A DNA stretch of 64,000 nt, taken from NCBI RefSeq assembly GCF_988243305.1, contig NZ_OZ547136.1, one strand, 5' to 3'. Positions 6,063-64,000 of this stretch are shown piece by piece; within the stretch, counting starts at the first letter, position 1; each line of letters opens with the position of its first letter. The translations under genes and the position numbers were made by a program. A model generated the notes under the pieces. It ran no database searches and was not told the origin of the DNA. It saw nothing but the letters and a program-made list of their open reading frames with translations.

Positions 6063-6090
6063 GCCGGATGCGCAGCATCGCATCCGGCGT
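6063..6090. terminator. hairpin between convergent fetB and ybbN (REP-like stem GCCGGATGCG...CGCATCCGGC)
   Basis: Inverted repeat read directly. Confidence 0.4.
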
Positions 6091-40803: not shown

Positions 40804-40829
40804 GCCGGATGCGAGTTTTCGCATCCGGT
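40804..40829. terminator. hairpin after cysS (CCGGATGCG...CGCATCCGG)
   Basis: Inverted repeat read directly. Confidence 0.45.
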
Positions 40830-51490: not shown

Positions 51491-54463
51491 TTACCAGTGC
51501 ACTCCAATGGTGAGAAACGCATTGTTGCGCTCTCCGTTACGTTGATTAATCGCCTTAAAGGTATGTTGATACTCGACGCCGAGACTGACTTTGTGCGGCC
51601 AGGCGTCGTAGTGCGTCTCGCCGGTCCAGATATTCCAGCGGACCCCGACACCGCCAAGCTGCGCGCCCTGAGTGCCTTTATCACGATAGCCGTTGTCCTG
51701 AACGTGAGCGTAAGGCTCAATAGTCTGTCCGTTAGCTACCTTCTGATGCCAGCTGACGCGATAATCTGCCGTCCACGCCTGAATATCCTGGCGGATATAT
51801 TGCGCTGCATCGAGGTACAGGTTTTGGGCAAACCAGCCTGAACCGTTCGGGTGCCATTCGTCGCTGTATTTGCCGCCATTAAAGAATGAGGCGCTGGCGC
51901 GCAGCATGGTATCGGATGCGCCATTTTGCCCGTTCAGCGGCAACTGCTGTTCGACGGCGAGGAAAAAGATCTGATCGCGCAGCGGCTTCCAGCGCAGACC
52001 GGTGCCGGACATCGGATTTTTCACCGGCATCATCACCCCGTTTTCTCCAGTATCGGCAAATACACGGCTGTAAACCGAGAGCAGGTCGCCTTCCAGCAGC
52101 ATATTGCGTCCGATGCGGTACTCGGCTTCCAGTTGCCCGTAGCTACGATAGCTTTTCCCTGGCGCTGCGCCGCCGACATTATTGTTAGCGGTACTCATTG
52201 CGCCGGAACGCAAGCCGATAGAAGAATCGAAACTGAACGTCCAGCGGCGACCGACCTCCTCATGCAGACGGCGGAAATTGAAGCGTTGCTGATTTTGCTC
52301 TGGGGTCAGTGGGGTTATCAGCGCCTGATTATCAATGTCATCAATCACCAGCCGGGCGTAGTGCTGCGTCGCAGGCATGTCATCCAGACGCTGGTTCACG
52401 TAGGCCAGTTGTCGGATAAGTGCCGGATCGTCCGGTAGCCCTTTATGCGCCTGTTCGAGCATTTCCCGCGACTGTGCGATATCACCGCTATCCCACAAGG
52501 CGTAACCGAGCGCTGCCTGGGTGTTGCTATTATTCGGTTCCAGTTCCAGCGCGGCGCGCAAATCACTCACCGCCGCCGGGACATTATGACGTTGGCGATA
52601 AATTGTCGCCCGCGCAACGTAAGCGTTGGCAGAAGGCGCAATATTGATTGAGCGCGTGAGATCGTTCAGTGCGAGTTCCGGCTGACCAGGAATGTAACGT
52701 TGCGCATGCAGCCACCAGTAGAGGGCATTGTTTCCCAGCCCACGTTGTTCTGCCTGCTGAAGCCAGCGATCGCGAGCCGCACCATTTCCTGCCGCCTGGG
52801 CGGTATTGGCAGCAGCAAGCAGATCCTCATTGCTCATGTCGTGAAGACTGATTTTCTGCCAGGCCGCCAGTGCGGTGGCGTAGTCCTCAACCTGATACGC
52901 CTGATAGGCTACCGCACGATGTTGCCAGGCGTTCGGTTGTCGTTGTTCGGCCTGAAGCCATGCATACAACGCCACACCGGGTAGCGTGTCCCGATAACAC
53001 TTTGCCAGACGGTTCCAGGCGGCGGCATCGTAGGAAGGCGACATATCGCCCAGCAAGCGAACTATAGCCGGGCAATTATCTGCAATACCCGGCAACTGAC
53101 TTTGCCACTGACGTTGCTCCGCCAGCGGTAAGGGTTTCGATAAAATCGCCACCTTCGCCGGCGTTGCCAGGTAAGGATGACTTTCCAGCAGAGACGCCAG
53201 TCGCGCCATTAACGTCTGGCTGACACGCGCATCGCCCTGGAAAGGATAGCGTTGCAGCAATAAATCGGCAGCTTCGCGTGACTGCTCGTTCTGCATCAGT
53301 TGCCAGGTCAGTTGATCCAGGCGGGTAAGATTTGCCGGTTCTTGCTGATACAGCAATCGTGCCAGACGCAGAGCTTCAGCCTTGTTATGGGTCGCTACGC
53401 TAACGGTATAACGCTCCTCAAGCATTTCATTGGCGGGGAGGGTGGCGAGCAGTTTTTGCGCTGCGTCGTACTGACCTTCTTTTAACAGCACCGGTAGCGT
53501 CGCGCCAACAACATACTGGCGGTTATCGGCAAACTGTACCGTATAATTCGCCAACGCCTGAACGGGGTTGGCGCTGTATTTAGATATCAGATAGAGCCAA
53601 CTTTTCTCTTGTGCGTCCGTGGTAAACAGCGGCTTATTTTCAATGAGATAATGCTGGAGGCGCGCTTTTTCGCCACGATAAGCCAGCGCGGTCGCGTAAG
53701 TAATATATGACTGAGGATCGGTGAAGATCCCCTGTGATTGCAGCGCCAGGATCCGATCGTCCAGCTGCCCGGCAAGAAGCACATCAAACCACTGGCGGCG
53801 TTCTGCCGCGCTTAATGTGTTCTGCTGGCGTGCTTCATTGTATAGCGTATCTGCCTGGGACCATTGCTTCAGGTAGATTGCCCGTTGCAGCAGATCGGTT
53901 CGCAGCGTTTTTCCTTCCGGCGATGCAGCAAACGTCGCATCGTTCAGTTGCGCTCTGGCGACAGGTAATTGTGCCAGCCGCAGGGCATTCTGCCCAACTT
54001 CACTGCGACAACGCAGGGTCGGCGCAGCATCGCACGCTTTTTGCTGGGCCAGCAGTTCTTCAACAGTCGTAACGCTTTTCACTTCAACTGGAATAGCCGC
54101 CAGACTGCGCTCAAGTCGGGCATCTCCTGGGTGACGTTTCAGTTGATCCTCAAGCAACAGCCGCGCCCGGTCATCATGACCAAAATGGCGATAGGCTTCC
54201 GCAAGGTATAAAGTCAGCGGAATATTATCCGGCACCTGTTGGTGTATATATTCAAATTCGCGGATGGCGGTTGCTTCGTCGTTATTTTTCTGTGCCTTCA
54301 GCGCCTTGTCGAGACGGGGATAAATAACAAAATGGCGATAATCGCTCAGCCCCAGCTCTTCTGCGCTGGTGCCGATATTGTCTGCGAGTGCGCTGGTACT
54401 CAATAAAGACGTCAGCAGTAAACCAGACCATCCGATGACGCGATTAAGGTTATTCTCCTTCAT
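51491..54463 (-). CDS. nfrA: TPR-containing outer membrane protein NfrA (phage N4 adsorption)
   Basis: Start at MKENNLNRVIGWSG (990 aa), ORF extends to 54484; signal peptide, TPR repeats. Confidence 0.85.
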   Translation of the reverse strand: MKENNLNRVIGWSGLLLTSLLSTSALADNIGTSAEELGLSDYRHFVIYPRLDKALKAQKNNDEATAIREFEYIHQQVPDNIPLTLYLAEAYRHFGHDDRARLLLEDQLKRHPGDARLERSLAAIPVEVKSVTTVEELLAQQKACDAAPTLRCRSEVGQNALRLAQLPVARAQLNDATFAASPEGKTLRTDLLQRAIYLKQWSQADTLYNEARQQNTLSAAERRQWFDVLLAGQLDDRILALQSQGIFTDPQSYITYATALAYRGEKARLQHYLIENKPLFTTDAQEKSWLYLISKYSANPVQALANYTVQFADNRQYVVGATLPVLLKEGQYDAAQKLLATLPANEMLEERYTVSVATHNKAEALRLARLLYQQEPANLTRLDQLTWQLMQNEQSREAADLLLQRYPFQGDARVSQTLMARLASLLESHPYLATPAKVAILSKPLPLAEQRQWQSQLPGIADNCPAIVRLLGDMSPSYDAAAWNRLAKCYRDTLPGVALYAWLQAEQRQPNAWQHRAVAYQAYQVEDYATALAAWQKISLHDMSNEDLLAAANTAQAAGNGAARDRWLQQAEQRGLGNNALYWWLHAQRYIPGQPELALNDLTRSINIAPSANAYVARATIYRQRHNVPAAVSDLRAALELEPNNSNTQAALGYALWDSGDIAQSREMLEQAHKGLPDDPALIRQLAYVNQRLDDMPATQHYARLVIDDIDNQALITPLTPEQNQQRFNFRRLHEEVGRRWTFSFDSSIGLRSGAMSTANNNVGGAAPGKSYRSYGQLEAEYRIGRNMLLEGDLLSVYSRVFADTGENGVMMPVKNPMSGTGLRWKPLRDQIFFLAVEQQLPLNGQNGASDTMLRASASFFNGGKYSDEWHPNGSGWFAQNLYLDAAQYIRQDIQAWTADYRVSWHQKVANGQTIEPYAHVQDNGYRDKGTQGAQLGGVGVRWNIWTGETHYDAWPHKVSLGVEYQHTFKAINQRNGERNNAFLTIGVHW

Positions 54464-56687
54464 TTTCGGACTCCAGTTGCGCAACCTTTTCTGTGTTTAA
54501 ACCTGCTTTGAGTAATAGTGATTGCATCGAAACTTGTAATTCGCGTTGAATTGTCAGGACGCGATCCAACGTTTCCTGGCTGATAACGCCTTCGGTGACC
54601 AAAAACTTGCCGAGCGGCAGAGAACTGCGTTCATGGCGCAATAACAACACGTTAATTGCTGAACGATTAATATGACCGAGCGTAGTCAGTATTTCGGCGA
54701 ACAGGAACTGATGCGGCACATATTGCCGCCAGATTTCACCGGCCTGCTGTTCCGTGAGCCACTGATGCTGAACTGCATTGTACAACATTGCCCGCGGATC
54801 GTGACCGCGTCGGCGTGCATACCAGTGGCGTAATCCGGTGACAATTTGTCCCCGCAGAACAATGACGTAACGCACTTTGCGTCCGACTTTACGCGTCAGG
54901 GCCGCCAGCGAAACCGGGTCAATACCATCTTCACTGCCGACAATTAACTCATCATTGTCCAGACGCAGCGGCAGTACCGCATAATGCAGCGCCACGGAGG
55001 CCGGCATTTCGGCAATCAGCGAGGAAGGGATCTGCCAGGCATCGATGGATTCCCACGCCACGCCGTTTTGCTCTGCCAGCGCCTGTGCCAGTTGCTCGGC
55101 GCTAATCAGCCCCTGCATCAGCATTGAACCGCCCAGGCGTAGACCTTCGACGCGATTACGCAGTGCTGTATCGAGTTGTTCTTCAGTGATGACCTGATTT
55201 TCCAGCAGGATTTGACCTAACGGGCGCAACGAGCGGGTATCGCCAGTCACGCTGGGGAAGTCATGCGTTGTTTTATCCCACGCCACTCGACGCGGATCGC
55301 CGTGTTGAAGTACCTGTTTTAACGCGCGCCAGTTGGCCATGAAGTTAATCAGGTTACCCCAGAAAAGACGCAGGACAGATAGCAGCCCCTGCGTCAGACC
55401 GTAGTAGCCAGTGACAAAAATCACCCGCTGCACGATGCGGTTAACCATCAAACCAAAGTTTAGCCACAGCAGGGTCATTAACCATGCGCTGCCGCTGAAA
55501 ATAGAAAGGAAATGCCAGGCATCGGGCCACAAACTTTCATACGCCAGTAACAGCAAAAGCTGGATCATCACCAGCATCGCGAGGAAGCTGACAAAGTTAC
55601 TGATTGCCCCTTTGCGGTCGCGCCAGAGAAAGTAGTTCAGCGTCAGGCTGGAGGTCCATTTGTGGGTTTTAAAGCCCTGGAAAACAATGCCGATGATCCA
55701 CCGAGATTTTTGTCGAACCGCAGTCGAAAAGGTATCGGGGAAATATTCGCGCACGCAGATCATGTTTGACGTCCGCGCATGCTGTAAAAATTTACGCTGC
55801 TCGCGTTCTTTGGCTTCGTCCACCACCGGAAAACGGACAAAAATTTCCGTCATACCTTTCTCTTTCAGGCGGAAGCCAATGTCGTAATCTTCAGTCAGAC
55901 TCTGCACGTCGAAAGCAATACCGTCACCGTCAGCTAACAGTGCGGTCACGGCGCGACGGCTGAAACAGGTACCGACGCCTGCGCTGGGCACCTGTCCGGC
56001 GAGGGCTTCACGCACCGGAACATCTTTGCCATGCAGTTCTGAAAACTCATCAATGTAGGTCATGCTGGTGAAGTGAGTCCATTCGCGTTCGAACGGATAC
56101 ACTGGGATCTGAATCAGATCTTTACGCTCGACCAGATAGTTGAACAGACGCAATTCCATCGGTGAAATCACATCTTCGGCGTCATGCAGAATAAAACCAG
56201 CAAAAGCGAAATTGGCGCTACGTTCAAATTGGGTGATGGCGTCCAGCACGTTGTTCAGACAGTCGGCTTTGCTGGTGGGGCCAGGACGCGCGCAGACTAC
56301 CTTATGCACGTTCGGGAAGCGAGCGCACACTTCGTCAACATCACGCTGAGTATCGGGGTCGTTGGGGTAGGTGCCAACAAAGATATGATAGTTTTCGTAG
56401 TCGAGCGTGGTCGCCGCCAGCTCGGCCATATTGCCGATGACGCCCGTTTCATTCCACGCCGGAACCATAATCGCTAACGGTTTTTCATCTGGTTTATACA
56501 GTTCGCGGTAACTCATTCGCGGGTAGCGGCGATAAACACTCAACTTGCGTTTAATGCGGCGTACCCAGTAGAAGACATCAATAAAAAAATCGTCCAGCCC
56601 GCTGATGAACATGATGACCGCTAACGTTATCGCGATTACTTTTAAGCCGTAGAGCCAGGTAGCAAAAACATCAAGAAGCCAGTCCAC
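54450..56687 (-). CDS. nfrB: family-2 glycosyltransferase NfrB (phage N4 adsorption)
   Basis: 745-aa ORF with N-terminal TM region and GT2 domain; overlaps nfrA start. Confidence 0.9.
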   Translation of the reverse strand: MDWLLDVFATWLYGLKVIAITLAVIMFISGLDDFFIDVFYWVRRIKRKLSVYRRYPRMSYRELYKPDEKPLAIMVPAWNETGVIGNMAELAATTLDYENYHIFVGTYPNDPDTQRDVDEVCARFPNVHKVVCARPGPTSKADCLNNVLDAITQFERSANFAFAGFILHDAEDVISPMELRLFNYLVERKDLIQIPVYPFEREWTHFTSMTYIDEFSELHGKDVPVREALAGQVPSAGVGTCFSRRAVTALLADGDGIAFDVQSLTEDYDIGFRLKEKGMTEIFVRFPVVDEAKEREQRKFLQHARTSNMICVREYFPDTFSTAVRQKSRWIIGIVFQGFKTHKWTSSLTLNYFLWRDRKGAISNFVSFLAMLVMIQLLLLLAYESLWPDAWHFLSIFSGSAWLMTLLWLNFGLMVNRIVQRVIFVTGYYGLTQGLLSVLRLFWGNLINFMANWRALKQVLQHGDPRRVAWDKTTHDFPSVTGDTRSLRPLGQILLENQVITEEQLDTALRNRVEGLRLGGSMLMQGLISAEQLAQALAEQNGVAWESIDAWQIPSSLIAEMPASVALHYAVLPLRLDNDELIVGSEDGIDPVSLAALTRKVGRKVRYVIVLRGQIVTGLRHWYARRRGHDPRAMLYNAVQHQWLTEQQAGEIWRQYVPHQFLFAEILTTLGHINRSAINVLLLRHERSSLPLGKFLVTEGVISQETLDRVLTIQRELQVSMQSLLLKAGLNTEKVAQLESENEGE

Positions 56688-56836: not shown

Positions 56837-58279
56837 TTAAGCGGGTAATGTGATAACAAACCTTGTCCCCCGAGCATCTGACGTTACTGCAACCGTGCCT
56901 TTATGCGCGACAACAATCGATTTCACTATCGCCAGACCAATGCCGCTACCTTCGCCTTTTCGCTGGCGGGAGGGGTCAACGCGGTAGAAACGGTCAAACA
57001 ATCGCGGTAAGTGTTCGGGCGCAATGGGCGTACCGGGGTTTTCGACGGAAACTTGCACCTGGTGATCGACCGTCTGGCAGCGCACAACAATTGTCTCTCC
57101 GGTTGGCGTATAACGCAGGGCATTAGAAAGTAGGTTGCTTAACGCCCGACGCAGCATCAGCGGATCACCCGCAACCTGACACTCGTCGCCAACAAACCGC
57201 AGCTCCACGCCGCGATCTTCTGCTAACGCCTCGAAAAAATCGAACACTTTGCCGACTTCATCCGCCAGGTTGAGCATTTTCTTTTCGGGGATTAGCTGGT
57301 TGTTATCGGCCTGAGCGAGAAACAGCATATCGCTGACCATTTTCGCCATTCGCGTCAGCTCTTCGAGATTAGAGTAGAGCACATCTTCCAGCTCCTTCTG
57401 GCTGCGCGACTGGCTGAGGGCGATTTCCGTTTGCGTTATGAGATTCGTAATTGGTGTGCGAATTTCGTGGGCGATATCCGCTGAGAAATTGGACTGGCGG
57501 GTAAAGACATCCTCAATACGCTCGATCATATGGTTGAACGACAGCACCAGTTGTTCGAGTTCAATGGGCACGGTCTGTGGATCGAGGCGAACGTCGAGAT
57601 CTTTCGAGGTGATATTCTGGATTTGACGGCTGACGCTGCGGATCGGCGCGTGACCTTTATGTACCGCCAACAGCACGATAAAGACGATCAGGATGCTGAT
57701 TACCGATGCGGTCATAATAAGTTTATTCATCAAATCATTTATGTAATGAAGATGAAAATCGATCGACAGCGCGATGTAGAGCGTATAAATCGGTTTGCCG
57801 TCAACCAGCGGGCCAACCGGCAAGTTAATCATCCGCCAGTTGCTGTGTTCCATATGCCCGTGACCGTGCCCTGGCATCATCATCGTCGGGCCGGAAAGGA
57901 GATACACCTCGCCGCCCCGAGCGTCTTTATCGGGTATGGCATCACGTGCAAACTCGCGGATATCGGGCGCGTCGGGGGAGTGATACACCGTTTTACCCTG
58001 GCTATCTGCCAGGGAAATCAACACGTTGGAATAACCACTGACGATATCTTCCAGCGTCATTAAGCGTCGGGCTTGTGTCTCTTCGGGATGATTAAGAACG
58101 CGCTTGAGTGTGGCGCTAATCTCTTTTAAATCATTAATATCCTGCTCGGCAAAATGCACTTTTACTGAGTGGATCATGATCCATGCAAAGGCGAAAAACG
58201 CCGCGATGGTGGCCAGGCTGATAAAAAAGGTCAGGCGGGTTGCCAGCGAAAACGGGCGCTGAAATGGCTTATTGACCAT
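56837..58279 (-). CDS. cusS: copper/silver sensor histidine kinase
   Basis: Two TM helices flanking a periplasmic domain; H-box IAHEIRTP; start at MVNKPFQRP (480 aa). Confidence 0.9.
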
Positions 58280-58952
58280 CCGGCACCTCAAGCATGTAAC
58301 CCACGCCGCGCACGGTTTGAATCAGCTTCGGCTCAAAGTCGTTGTCGATTTTGCCGCGTAGCCGCTTCACCGCCACATCAATGGCGTTAGTGTCGCTGTC
58401 GAAATTCATGTCCCATACCTGCGAGGCGATAAGCGAGCGGGGCAGCACTTCGCCCTGATGGCGAAGGAAAAACTCCAGCAGAGTAAATTCTTTACTGGTC
58501 AGAGTGATGCGCGTGCCGCTGCGGGTGACTTTGCGGCTGACGAGATCGACCATCAGATCGGCAACCTGAAACTGACTTTCGATAATCACCGCCGCCCCGC
58601 GCCGCAGGAGAGTGCGCACCCGCGCCAGCAGTTCAGCAAAAGCGAACGGCTTCACCAGATAGTCATCGGCCCCCAACTCCAGCCCCTTGACGCGATGTTC
58701 AATGGTGCCAAGCGCGGTAAGCAACAGAATCGGCATCCCTTTATTGGCGGAGCGCAACATGCGCACGATATCCCAGCCGTTCACGTCCGGCAGCATAATA
58801 TCGAGGATTATCAGGTCATAATCACCGGTCATCGCCAGATGGTAGCCATTCAGCCCATTGTCGGCCAAATCGACCACAAAACCGGCTTCGGTTAACCCTT
58901 TGGTCAAGTATTCTCCGGTTTTCTTTTCATCTTCGACAATCAACAGTTTCAT
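58269..58952 (-). CDS. cusR: OmpR-family response regulator
   Basis: MKLLIVEDE receiver plus winged helix; overlaps cusS start. Confidence 0.95.
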
Positions 58953-59017
58953 ATTTCCTCCGCATGTTGCCCGGGCAATTCTAGAGTAGCGGGATCAGAT
59001 GGCAATCGCTTATTGGC

Positions 59018-59039
59018 AAAATGACAATTTTGTCATTTT
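59018..59039. promoter_or_regulatory. CusR box AAAATGACAA-TT-TTGTCATTTT in the cusR-cusC divergent promoter
   Basis: Palindrome with 10-bp arms read directly; matches the CusR/copper-box consensus as I recall it. Confidence 0.7.
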
Positions 59040-59108
59040 CCTGTCACCGGAAAATCAGAGCCTGGCGAGTAAAGTTGGCGGCATAAAATCACCAGAAATT
59101 ATGAGCCT

Positions 59109-60491
59109 ATGTCTCCTTGTAAACTTCTGCCATTTTGTGTGGCCCTTGCGCTAACCGGTTGTTCACTGGCACCGGATTATCAGCGCCCGGCAATGCCCGT
59201 GCCGCAGCAGTTCTCACTCAGCCAGAACGGCCTCGTTAACGCAGCAGATAACTATCAGAACGCGGGCTGGCGCACCTTTTTTGTTGATAATCAGGTGAAG
59301 ACGCTGATTAGCGAGGCGCTGGTGAATAACCGGGATTTGCGCATGGCGACGCTGAAAGTGCAGGAAGCGCGGGCGCAATATCGTCTGACCGATGCCGACC
59401 GCTACCCACAGCTCAATGGCGAGGGCAGCGGCAGCTGGAGCGGCAATCTTAAAGGCGATTCAGCCACGACGCGGGAGTTCTCGACTGGCCTTAACGCCAG
59501 CTTTGATCTCGATTTTTTCGGTCGCTTAAAGAACATGAGCGAAGCCGAGCGCCAAAATTATTTAGCCACTGAGGAAGCCCAGCGCGCGGTGCATATTCTG
59601 CTGGTTTCTAATGTCGCGCAAAGCTATTTCAATCAGCAGCTGGTGTATGCGCAATTGCAAATCGCCGAAGAAACGCTGCGTAATTATCAGCAGTCATATG
59701 CGTTTGTCGAAAAACAACTGTTGACCGGTAGCAGCAATGTTCTGGCGCTGGAACAGGCTCGCGGGGTGATTGAAAGTACCCGCAGCGACATCGCTAAACG
59801 TCAGGGGGAACTGGCGCAGGCGAATAATGCATTGCAACTGTTATTGGGAAGCTACGGCAAGCTGCCGCAAGCGCAGACAGTAAACAGCGACAGCCTGCAA
59901 AGCGTTAAATTACCGGCGGGCTTGTCGTCGCAAATCTTATTGCAGCGCCCGGATATTATGGAAGCTGAACATGCGTTAATAGCGGCTAATGCCAATATTG
60001 GTGCTGCACGCGCGGCATTTTTCCCGTCTATCAGCCTGACCAGCGGAATATCAACCGCCAGCAGCGATCTGTCGTCATTATTTAACGCCAGCAGCGGGAT
60101 GTGGAATTTTATACCCAAAATTGAGCTCCCCATTTTTAATGCCGGACGTAACCAGGCCAATCTGGATATCGCCGAAATTCGCCAGCAGCAGTCGGTGGTG
60201 AATTATGAACAGAAAATCCAGAACGCCTTTAAAGAAGTGGCAGATGCGCTGGCATTACGTCAAAGCCTGAACGATCAAATTAGCGCCCAGCAGCGTTATC
60301 TGGCGTCGCTGCAAATTACTTTGCAACGGGCGCGGGCATTATATCAGCACGGCGCGGTAAGTTATCTGGAAGTGCTGGATGCTGAGCGTTCTTTATTTGC
60401 AACCCGACAAACTTTACTTGACCTGAATTATGCCCGTCAGGTTAATGAAATTTCTTTATATACCGCCTTAGGCGGCGGTTGGCAGCAATAA
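59109..60491 (+). CDS. cusC: outer membrane efflux lipoprotein (OMF family)
   Basis: Lipobox LTGC; TolC-like repeats. Confidence 0.9.
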   Translation: MSPCKLLPFCVALALTGCSLAPDYQRPAMPVPQQFSLSQNGLVNAADNYQNAGWRTFFVDNQVKTLISEALVNNRDLRMATLKVQEARAQYRLTDADRYPQLNGEGSGSWSGNLKGDSATTREFSTGLNASFDLDFFGRLKNMSEAERQNYLATEEAQRAVHILLVSNVAQSYFNQQLVYAQLQIAEETLRNYQQSYAFVEKQLLTGSSNVLALEQARGVIESTRSDIAKRQGELAQANNALQLLLGSYGKLPQAQTVNSDSLQSVKLPAGLSSQILLQRPDIMEAEHALIAANANIGAARAAFFPSISLTSGISTASSDLSSLFNASSGMWNFIPKIELPIFNAGRNQANLDIAEIRQQQSVVNYEQKIQNAFKEVADALALRQSLNDQISAQQRYLASLQITLQRARALYQHGAVSYLEVLDAERSLFATRQTLLDLNYARQVNEISLYTALGGGWQQ

Positions 60492-60514: not shown

Positions 60515-60847
60515 ATGAAAAAAGCACTGCAAGTCGCAATGTTTAGTCTGTTTACCGTTATTGGCTTTAATGCCCAGGCTAACGAACATCATCATGAAAC
60601 CATGAGCGAAGTACAACCGCAGGTTATTAGCGCCACTGGCGTGGTAAAAGGTATTGATCTGGAAAGCAAAAAAATCACCATCCATCACGATCCGATTGCA
60701 GCCGTGAACTGGCCGGAGATGACCATGCGCTTTACCATCACCCCGCAGACGAAAATGAGTGAAATTAAAACCGGCGACAAAGTGGCGTTTAATTTTGTCC
60801 AGCAGGGCAACCTTTCTTTATTACAGGATATTAAAGTCAGCCAGTAA
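60515..60847 (+). CDS. cusF: periplasmic copper/silver chaperone
   Basis: 110 aa, signal peptide, His/Met-rich. Confidence 0.9.
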   Translation: MKKALQVAMFSLFTVIGFNAQANEHHHETMSEVQPQVISATGVVKGIDLESKKITIHHDPIAAVNWPEMTMRFTITPQTKMSEIKTGDKVAFNFVQQGNLSLLQDIKVSQ

Positions 60848-60862
60848 CCCAGGTTTAATGAG

Positions 60863-62086
60863 ATGAAAAAAATCGCGCTTATTATCGGCAGCATGATCGC
60901 GGGCGGTATTATTTCTGCGGCAGGTATTACCTGGTTTGCAAAGGCTGAACCGCCCGCAGAAAAAACGCCGACCGCAGAACGTAAAATCTTATTCTGGTAC
61001 GACCCGATGTATCCCAATACGCGGTTCGATAAACCAGGTAAATCGCCGTTTATGGATATGGATCTGGTGCCGAAATATGCCGATGAAGAGAGTTCTGCGT
61101 CTGGTGTACGCATTGACCCGACCCAGACGCAGAATCTGGGGGTGAAAACGGCTACCGTTACGCGCGGGCCGCTGACTTTTGCCCAGAGTTTCCCGGCGAA
61201 TGTCAGTTACAACGAGTATCAGTATGCCATTGTGCAGGCTCGCGCTGCCGGGTTTATCGATAAGGTGTATCCGCTTACCGTGGGCGATAAAGTACAAAAG
61301 GGCACACCGCTTCTCGACCTGACCATTCCCGACTGGGTGGAAGCGCAGAGTGAGTATTTACTGCTGCGCGAAACCGGCGGTACGGCGACCCAGACTGAAG
61401 GCATTCTTGAGCGACTGCGACTGGCGGGAATGCCGGAGGCTGATATTCGCCGCCTGATCGCCACGCAAAAAATCCAGACTCGCTTTACGCTCAAATCGCC
61501 CATTGATGGCGTTATCACCGCGTTTGATCTGCGCGCGGGAATGAATATCGCCAAAGATAACGTGGTCGCGAAAATTCAGGGTATGGACCCGGTGTGGGTC
61601 ACTGCTGCGATCCCGGAGTCCATCGCCTGGCTGGTGAAAGATGCCTCGCAGTTTACGCTCACCGTTCCGGCGCGACCGGATAAAACACTCACCATCCGCA
61701 AATGGACGCTGCTACCCGGCGTGGATGCCGCGACCCGCACCTTGCAACTGCGTCTGGAAGTCGACAACGCCGACGAGGCGCTAAAACCGGGAATGAACGC
61801 CTGGTTGCAACTCAACACCGCCAGCGAACCGATGCTGCTCATTCCGTCACAGGCGCTGATTGATACCGGCAACGAACAGCGGGTGATTACCGTTGATGCC
61901 GACGGGCGCTTTGTACCGAAACGCGTTGCCGTTTTCCAGGCATCGCAAGGCGTCACCGCGTTACGCTCTGGTCTGGCGGAAGGTGAAAAGGTGGTTTCCA
62001 GCGGCCTGTTCCTGATTGATTCCGAAGCCAATATTTCTGGCGCACTGGAGCGGATGCGCTCTGAAAGTGCTACCCATGCGCATTGA
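60863..62086 (+). CDS. cusB: membrane fusion protein of the Cus efflux system
   Basis: 407-aa RND adaptor family. Confidence 0.9.
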   Translation: MKKIALIIGSMIAGGIISAAGITWFAKAEPPAEKTPTAERKILFWYDPMYPNTRFDKPGKSPFMDMDLVPKYADEESSASGVRIDPTQTQNLGVKTATVTRGPLTFAQSFPANVSYNEYQYAIVQARAAGFIDKVYPLTVGDKVQKGTPLLDLTIPDWVEAQSEYLLLRETGGTATQTEGILERLRLAGMPEADIRRLIATQKIQTRFTLKSPIDGVITAFDLRAGMNIAKDNVVAKIQGMDPVWVTAAIPESIAWLVKDASQFTLTVPARPDKTLTIRKWTLLPGVDAATRTLQLRLEVDNADEALKPGMNAWLQLNTASEPMLLIPSQALIDTGNEQRVITVDADGRFVPKRVAVFQASQGVTALRSGLAEGEKVVSSGLFLIDSEANISGALERMRSESATHAH

Positions 62087-62097
62087 GGGAATAACCA

Positions 62098-64000
62098 ATG
62101 ATTGAATGGATTATTCGTCGCTCGGTGGCGAACCGTTTTCTGGTGCTGATGGGCGCGTTGTTTCTGAGTATCTGGGGCACCTGGACCATCATTAACACGC
62201 CAGTGGATGCGCTGCCGGATCTCTCCGATGTGCAGGTGATTATTAAAACCAGCTATCCCGGTCAGGCACCGCAAATCGTTGAAAATCAGGTGACTTATCC
62301 GCTAACTACCACCATGTTGTCGGTGCCTGGCGCGAAGACTGTGCGCGGTTTCTCGCAGTTTGGCGACTCTTATGTGTATGTCATTTTCGAAGATGGCACC
62401 GATCCATACTGGGCGCGCTCGCGGGTGCTGGAGTACCTCAACCAGGTACAGGGTAAGCTGCCTGCGGGAGTCAGCGCCGAGCTGGGGCCAGATGCCACGG
62501 GTGTTGGCTGGATCTATGAATATGCACTGGTGGATCGCAGCGGTAAGCACGATCTTGCCGATTTACGCTCATTGCAGGACTGGTTTCTCAAATATGAGCT
62601 GAAAACCATTCCTGACGTTGCGGAAGTGGCGTCGGTAGGCGGTGTGGTGAAAGAGTATCAGGTGGTTATCGATCCTCAGCGCCTGGCGCAATATGGCATC
62701 AGTCTCGCCGAAGTAAAAAGCGCGCTGGATGCTTCAAACCAGGAAGCGGGCGGTTCGTCGATCGAACTGGCGGAAGCGGAATATATGGTGCGCGCCAGCG
62801 GCTATCTGCAAACGCTCGACGACTTTAATCACATCGTTTTAAAAGCCAGTGAAAATGGCGTGCCCGTTTATCTGCGTGATGTTGCGAAGGTCCAGATTGG
62901 CCCGGAGATGCGCCGGGGCATTGCCGAACTGAACGGCGAAGGCGAAGTGGCGGGCGGAGTGGTGATCCTGCGCTCCGGCAAAAACGCCCGTGAAGTGATC
63001 GCCGCCGTGAAGGACAAACTGGAAACGCTGAAAAGCAGTCTGCCGGAAGGCGTGGAGATAGTTACAACATACGATCGCAGCCAGCTCATTGACCGCGCCA
63101 TCGACAACCTCAGCGGCAAGTTGCTGGAAGAGTTTATTGTGGTGGCGGTAGTCTGTGCGCTGTTTCTCTGGCATGTGCGCTCGGCGCTGGTGGCGATTAT
63201 TTCGTTGCCGCTGGGGTTGTGTATTGCTTTTATTGTCATGCACTTTCAGGGACTGAACGCCAATATTATGTCGCTGGGCGGCATTGCGATTGCCGTCGGG
63301 GCGATGGTCGATGCCGCTATCGTCATGATCGAGAATGCGCATAAACGGCTGGAAGAGTGGCAGCACCAGCATCCTGACGCCACGCTGGATAATAAAACGC
63401 GCTGGCAGGTGATTACCGATGCGTCTGTTGAAGTGGGGCCGGCGCTGTTTATCAGTCTGCTGATTATCACGTTGTCGTTTATCCCAATCTTCACCCTGGA
63501 AGGGCAGGAAGGGCGTCTGTTTGGCCCGCTGGCGTTCACCAAAACGTATGCGATGGCGGGTGCGGCGCTGCTGGCGATCGTAGTGATCCCTATCCTGATG
63601 GGCTACTGGATCCGTGGCAAAATTCCGCCGGAAAGCAGTAACCCGCTCAATCGCTTTTTGATTCGTGTTTATCATCCGCTGTTGCTGAAAGTACTGCACT
63701 GGCCGAAAACCACGCTGCTGGTGGCGGCGCTTTCGGTGCTGACGGTTCTCTGGCCGCTCAATAAAGTTGGCGGGGAATTTTTACCGCAGATCAATGAAGG
63801 CGACTTGTTGTATATGCCATCGACGCTGCCGGGGATTTCCGCAGCAGAGGCGGCGAGTATGCTGCAAAAAACCGACAAGCTGATTATGAGCGTACCTGAA
63901 GTGGCGCGGGTATTTGGCAAAACCGGGAAAGCGGAAACCGCCACCGATTCTGCTCCGCTGGAGATGGTAGAAACGACCATCCAGCTTAAGCCGCAGGATC
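62098..64000 (+). CDS. cusA: RND heavy-metal efflux pump CusA, 5' portion (runs off window end)
   Basis: Open frame from ATG 62098 ([27 protein letters not shown]) to the window end; not in ORF track because no stop is present. Confidence 0.9.

Follow-up and report, generated by a model that had tools for sequence, protein, structure and literature searches.

The CusR box in the divergent cusR-cusC spacer of Escherichia coli: a palindrome shared with HprR and overlapping a PhoB site

The window analyzed here, a stretch of 64,000 nt, has a gene order that is usual for the E. coli chromosome: ybbO, the allantoin cluster, cysS, the sfm fimbrial genes and fimZ, followed by a tRNA-Arg gene, envY, nfrAB, cusSR and cusCFBA. 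Within this array, nfrB adjoins cusS, and the two cus operons diverge from a spacer of 156 bp that extends from the boundary of cusR (minus strand, 58952) to the start of cusC (plus strand, 59109). The cus genes are arranged as follows.

56837–58279, minus strand: cusS, sensor kinase (NF007345, 981.9 bits)
58269–58952, minus strand: cusR, response regulator, 227 aa (equivalog model NF007346, 507.9 bits, cut-off 420)
59109–60491, plus strand: cusC, outer-membrane channel (NF007347, 902.4 bits; RefSeq annotation)
60515–60847, plus strand: cusF, periplasmic metallochaperone (NF007348, 205.1 bits)
60863–62086, plus strand: cusB, periplasmic adaptor (NF007303, 856.6 bits)
62098–64000, plus strand: probable cusA, RND permease, truncated by the window end (placed from the RefSeq annotation of L001 via the offset)

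These gene identities were assigned with NCBIfam models scoring above their curated cut-offs and with the RefSeq annotation of a genome that carries a 100% identical spacer, and both agree with the first-pass annotation, which had located the box between divergent cusRS and cusCFBA operons. The CusR protein of the window is 100% identical to WP_000770953.1, which is annotated in K-12 derivatives and is also encoded in L001. The start of cusS is probably an internal ATG: the mechanical open reading frame reaches 58291, and the NF007345 profile aligns from residue 5 of that frame. The first-pass annotation had also taken the box as confirmation of the cus locus; the locus is indeed cus, but the proof comes from the proteins and not from the box.

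The elements recognized within the spacer are listed below.

58978–59005, minus strand: putative cusR promoter, with −35 hexamer TTGCCA (59005–59000), 16-nt spacer and −10 hexamer TAGAAT (58983–58978) (promoter scan, 10 of 12 matches)
59018–59039, no strand assigned: CusR box, 22-bp palindrome AAAATGACAA-TT-TTGTCATTTT, also recognized by HprR (identity to the published box)
59021–59036, no strand assigned: 16-bp core ATGACA-ATTT-TGTCAT, a 6-4-6 arrangement in agreement with the family consensus ATKACANNNNTGTMAT
59031–59048, plus strand: Pho-box-like direct repeat TGTCAT-TTTCC-TGTCAC(C), made up of the right arm and the third half-site
59042–59047, plus strand: third half-site TGTCAC, confined to the cusC side, its start 11 bp from that of the right arm
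59056–59060, plus strand: conserved block CAGAG, followed after 9 nt by the putative −10 (invariant in the spacer alignment)
59070–59075, plus strand: putative cusC −10 hexamer TAAAGT, at a fixed distance of 22 nt after the third half-site

Read directly, positions 59018–59039 of the window are AAAATGACAATTTTGTCATTTT. The perfect-arm palindrome reported for these positions at first pass was recovered by the repeat finder, which returns two 10-nt arms (59018–59027 and 59030–59039), 100% complementary and separated by a gap of 2 nt. The check that had been proposed there, a comparison with the published CusR site, gave letter-for-letter identity to AAAATGACAAnnTTGTCATTTT, quoted in PMC11195947 as the E. 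coli CusR site and placed there where the cusRS and cusC(F)BA operons diverge. The K-12 CusR box (Yamamoto and Ishihama, 2005, as relayed in PMC11195947 and bioRxiv 10.1101/2020.08.17.251918) is the same 22 bp, in the same position and for the same regulator. The spacer of K-12 (MC1061) differs from that of the window by a single base outside the box, namely T instead of C at 59040. In a scan of the 64 kb with the pattern AAAATGACAANNTTGTCATTTT, 59018–59039 is the sole match, with 0 mismatches, and it is still the sole match when up to three mismatches are allowed, a setting at which 0.02 matches are expected by chance. The consensus ATKACANNNNTGTMAT matches only at 59021–59036 within the window (regular-expression scan).

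Binding of CusR to this spacer has been recorded in K-12 by two approaches. ChIP-chip of CusR in K-12 gave just one peak across the genome, at the cusR-cusC spacer (bioRxiv 10.1101/2020.08.17.251918), in agreement with Yamamoto and Ishihama (2005), and gSELEX detected a CusR peak in the same spacer (PMC8249747). Furthermore, experiments with reporters have demonstrated that copper induction of PcusC needs CusRS (PMC8966772). Given that K-12 and the window have exactly the same box and the same CusR protein, the K-12 experimental record transfers directly, and the view of the site as a CusR-dependent operator, already expressed at first pass, is upheld. We consider it almost certain that 59018–59039 is the operator of the CusS-CusR copper/silver two-component system; CusR binding and copper dependence would carry over from the literature on the identical K-12 site. 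This CusR box has been described before, and the additional traits discussed below have likewise been published, either for E. coli or for the homolog AgrR. It has also been reported that unphosphorylated CusR binds the cusR-cusC spacer, which was termed repression (PMC8249747), so that regulation without metal may be of either sign.

It is established in the literature that CusS responds to Cu(I)/Ag(I) by phosphorylating CusR, that CusR acts at this spacer to switch on cusCFBA and cusRS, and that HprR and PhoB bind the spacer as well. In detail, we propose that periplasmic Cu(I)/Ag(I) would activate the CusS kinase, resulting in phosphorylation of CusR, which would then bind as a symmetric dimer to the palindrome hexamers ATGACA and TGTCAT. 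Both divergent promoters could be activated from this one site, cusCFBA in the rightward direction and cusRS in the leftward direction, the latter amounting to autoregulation. HprR, a paralog of CusR, is reported to recognize the same sequence with a different affinity, and its highest gSELEX peak is in this very spacer (PMC8249747); PhoB, in K-12, occupies the direct repeat made up of the right arm and the adjacent TGTCAC. The palindrome common to CusR and HprR, combined with the PhoB direct repeat, would therefore make the spacer a small integration point for three regulators of the OmpR/PhoB family. The sharing of the site with HprR and its overlap with a PhoB site refine the first-pass account.

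The geometry of the two promoters can be estimated from their predicted hexamers. Relative to the cusC transcription start predicted from the −10-like hexamer, the box would be centered at about −53.5 and the third half-site would occupy about −40 to −35; relative to the start predicted for cusR, the center of the box would be at about −57.5. The predicted starts themselves would fall near 59082 (plus strand) for cusC and near 58971 (minus strand) for cusR. A distance of 22 nt between the third half-site and a −10-like hexamer recurs in Collimonas, hiuH, Kosakonia silE and pcoE, and Salmonella silE has 23 nt; the hexamers found at these distances are TAAAGT, TATAAT, TATCCT or TAGACT. GTAAAGT and CAGAG are both invariant in the spacers of E. 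coli, Klebsiella, Citrobacter and sil, and, with unchanged spacing to the −10, the pcoE promoter has CAGAG and the silE promoter CAGAA.

Other readings of the same stretch were discarded. TGTCAC is too far, at 22 nt, from the conserved −10-like hexamer to be a canonical −35 hexamer, and a sigma-54 reading of TGTCAC-N5-AATCA was rejected by eye, the −24 GG and −12 GC dinucleotides being missing. The mechanical 51-aa open reading frame that runs across the box (58999–59154) was dismissed as a coding sequence: it is unannotated in RefSeq genomes, and the alignment gaps in Klebsiella and sil seemingly are not multiples of three.

The identity of the sequence, its gene context, its conservation and its geometry come from the present analysis. 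The cusR-cusC spacer is found at 95% identity or more in 5333 of the 5426 complete E. coli genomes. The segment 59010–59039 is perfectly preserved in 5148 of 5334 E. coli records (~96%), another 184 carry a single mismatch and 2 carry two; in the rare N96 variant, AAAATGACAGTATTGTCATTTT, only the central four bases are altered. Over the longer segment 59009–59048, 3379 records match the window exactly, and the other 1955 depart from it by one or two differences. Two strains with a single mismatch were read (K-12 MC1061 and AR_0369), and in both the difference is at 59040, a common E. coli polymorphism located one base outside the box and inside the linker of the PhoB motif.

E. coli O19:H7 730V1 carries an insertion of the IS903B family that separates the CusR box from the cusC −10 region (L131, 3110–4222), with the break corresponding to ~59061 of the window, and a second insertion sequence, of the ISKpn26 family, interrupts cusC. 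The efflux operon of this strain is severed from its operator and pseudogenised.

Beyond E. coli, we aligned the spacer with its cusR-cusC counterpart from Klebsiella and with two plasmid-borne silR-silC spacers, one from Kosakonia and one from a Salmonella IncHI2 plasmid. Columns of this alignment are on average 69% identical, and the invariant or nearly invariant blocks are the box, the GTCAC just downstream of it, CAGAG and GTAAAGT; on the cusR side, the TTGnnA and TAnAAT hexamers are kept in the Klebsiella and sil spacers. The spacer of Citrobacter werkmanii displays the same pattern of conservation. The silR-silC spacers of the sil plasmids consist of AAAATGACAA(TA/CA)TTGTCATTAT, followed by CCTGTCAC, CAGAG and GTAAAGT, and their boxes differ from that of E. 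coli by one outer base (TTAT as opposed to TTTT). Natural variation, as seen in E. coli N96, Klebsiella, Citrobacter and sil, is confined to the central N4 and one outer flank base, and a "copper box" of the form ATKACA-N4-TGTMAT is kept in the spacers of Klebsiella, Citrobacter, Kosakonia and Salmonella sil, Collimonas and hprR-hiuH. The silE and pcoE promoters possess the box, the third half-site and the spacing as at cusC, and the pcoA box is of the ATTACA/TGTAAT type, without a clean third half-site.

The sil spacers (L002, 9020–9040, reverse strand, and the equivalent in L004) contain, in addition, a TGTAAT half-site on the silR side, located 12 bp start-to-start from the arm, which is absent from the spacers of E. 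coli, Klebsiella and Collimonas.

A pattern scan of genome contigs with AATGACANNNNTGTCATT yielded at least 120 loci, almost all of them chance matches. Among the matches listed, a full-length CusR homolog is encoded less than ~100 bp away only in Citrobacter werkmanii and Collimonas; the match in L026 has a partial, 41% CusR-like hit nearby. In the betaproteobacterium Collimonas sp. OK607 (L104, 3387–7716), a CusR-like regulator (57% identity) and a kinase are divergent from three genes, one for a 207-aa protein without a Pfam match, one for a cytochrome b561 and one for a molybdopterin oxidoreductase. The intergenic region contains a perfect ATGACAATATTGTCAT box and the third half-site TGTCAC, followed after 22 nt by TAGACT.

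Eight of the at least 120 loci listed for AATGACANNNNTGTCATT belong to Collinsella species (L018, L030, L037, L038, L045, L047, L073 and L078). This is an excess over chance, and the pattern may be part of a conserved gene or operator in these bacteria.

The third half-site is a recurrent companion of the box. Its GTCAC is invariant across the cus and sil loci, and comparable arrangements are found in the sil spacers, in Kosakonia silE (TGTCAT-N5-TGTCAT), in pcoE (TGTCAT-N5-AGTCAC) and in the K-12 hprR-hiuH spacer (TGTAAT-N5-TGTAAG); the silE copy of the Salmonella IncHI2 plasmid has a weaker third half-site, TGTTCA. For comparison, TGTMA occurs at +11 in 1 of 238 control flanks, which were those of chance matches to the 18-mer among the matches listed. 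The arrangement is not universal, since it is lacking at the pcoA promoter.

Among the other named systems, one within E. coli is the CusR/HprR box of hprR-hiuH, CATTACAAAATTGTAATG (PMC9302797), which is likewise a 6-4-6 inverted repeat in a spacer between a divergent regulator and its target, with an in-phase third half-site on the target side and 22 nt to a −10-like hexamer, as at cusC. It differs from the site in the window in its hexamers (ATTACA/TGTAAT versus ATGACA/TGTCAT) and in the loss of the outer A/T tracts. In Cupriavidus metallidurans, the footprinted AgrR box has the consensus ATKACANNNNTGTMAT accompanied by in-phase direct repeats (PMC7380067). The core in the window, ATGACAATTTTGTCAT, fits this consensus exactly, and both sites have an extra in-phase half-site proximal to the promoter. 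AgrR belongs to another organism and another regulon, and the contribution of its direct repeats is proven by mutation (PMC7380067), whereas for E. coli CusR such a contribution is a prediction. Another case is the palindrome recognized by CusR/CopR/CzcR in Pseudomonas paraeruginosa, printed as ATTCATnnATGTAAT (PMC11195947), which is also perfect, is also located in a divergent regulator/target spacer and is common to several response regulators, but has another hexamer sequence, is shorter and serves a pco-type operon.

The arrangement palindrome-N5-third half-site-N22-−10 is seen at cusC, silC, silE, pcoE, hiuH and Collimonas, and the box may be the core of a larger operator of this composition, a possibility that we put forward tentatively and that we would rate as somewhat less likely than not. 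The third half-site of E. coli might be needed for full CusR-dependent activation, besides serving PhoB; it might, for example, accommodate a further CusR protomer docked beside sigma region 4. If this tripartite organization is correct, the invariant CAGAG would be a further promoter element in the enterobacterial promoters.

The right arm of the palindrome and the third half-site also have a documented link to PhoB. The two TGTCA-type half-sites, at 59031 and 59042, form a direct repeat with an 11-bp period, as in a Pho box. The PhoB ChIP-seq motif at cusR/cusC in K-12, TGTCATTTTTCTGTCACC, corresponds to the right arm plus the third half-site (PMC10294691, Table 1), deletion of phoB lowers the cusC RNA counts from 208 to 50 (PMC10294691), and earlier work by ChIP-chip and EMSA had found PhoB at cusR/cusC and at yedW/yedX (PMC3465305). 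PhoB occupancy and PhoB-dependent expression of cusC would apply to the window by extension from this K-12 literature, its site being different in one linker base (C at 59040). Positions 59031–59048 share with the Pho box, CTGTCAT-A(AT)A(TA)-CTGT(CA)A(CT) (PMC3465305), the TGTCA direct repeat and the 11-bp period. The linker of the window repeat, TTTCC, with C at 59040 versus T in K-12, is less A/T-rich than that of the Pho box. Unlike the Pho box, the window repeat stops ~21 nt before the putative −10 and overlaps the palindrome of another regulator. In classical pho promoters, the distance between the Pho box and the −10 is ~10 nt.

The resemblance of TGTCAT-N5-TGTCAC to the Pho box (CTGTCAT-AWAW-CTGTMAY), the detection of PhoB at the spacer by ChIP-seq and EMSA, the PhoB dependence of cusC expression and the presence of the top HprR gSELEX peak in the same spacer (PMC8249747) could be taken to mean that the site is mainly a PhoB or HprR operator, with CusR as a secondary user. 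We regard this as very improbable. The PhoB ChIP signal at cusR/cusC is modest, with a score of 3 where the same table gives phoE 14 and phoA 20 (PMC10294691); the gene that adjoins the site is that of CusR; the left arm, which is outside the PhoB motif, is conserved as well as the right arm; and it is CusRS that the copper induction of PcusC requires (PMC8966772).

The statistics of inverted repeats bear on the remaining alternative. The window contains 4 perfect inverted repeats whose arms are 10 nt long and no more than 10 nt apart, versus ~1 expected from a first-order Markov simulation of the window, and 54% of the simulated windows contain at least one. Because 10-nt-arm palindromes alone are not rare, the significance of the box lies in its match to a published, pre-specified site and in its conservation across loci. 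Even though such repeats arise by chance about once per 64 kb and the single-stranded DNA fold of the box reaches −7.3 kcal/mol (z-score −3.8), it is hardly credible that the box is a chance palindrome or a structural element, i.e., a cruciform or a transcript hairpin or terminator, with no regulatory protein partner, given that it matches the published 20-base consensus exactly (expectation 0.02 even at three mismatches), that it is conserved across genera while its flanks diverge, and that published CusR binding contradicts a partnerless palindrome. The fold energy was set aside as evidence for a hairpin, −7.3 kcal/mol being what any palindrome gives, and so was the terminator or hairpin reading, with a scan that returned no terminator-like site here, two G/C bases per arm and a location upstream of both predicted promoters.

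The other perfect 10-nt-arm inverted repeats of the window are at 2341–2365, 6063–6088 and 40805–40828. Two of these three share a motif, GCCGGATGCG/CCGGATGCGA, and presumably resemble REP-type repeats.

The CusR operator described here has little significance beyond annotation: the window carries an intact, canonical cus regulatory region. The site is, however, not a simple palindrome, in that HprR shares it and a documented PhoB site overlaps it, and its geometry is kept in plasmid-borne sil and pco promoters, which move together with metal-resistance islands. These features are relevant to the design of PcusC-based copper biosensors and to the interpretation of promoter variants.

The part of the window between 20000 and 44000 has a best match of 98.3% over 24 kb among the 5,426 complete E. 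coli genomes, a low value that contrasts with the cusR-cusC spacer, which is 100% identical to that of some strains. The lineage of the window seems to be poorly represented among complete E. coli assemblies. The neighbor of cusS varies between strains: it is nfrB in the window (54450–56687) and in strain Z1323HEC0462, as opposed to a VgrG/TssI gene, of type VI secretion, in FDAARGOS_497 and 730V1.
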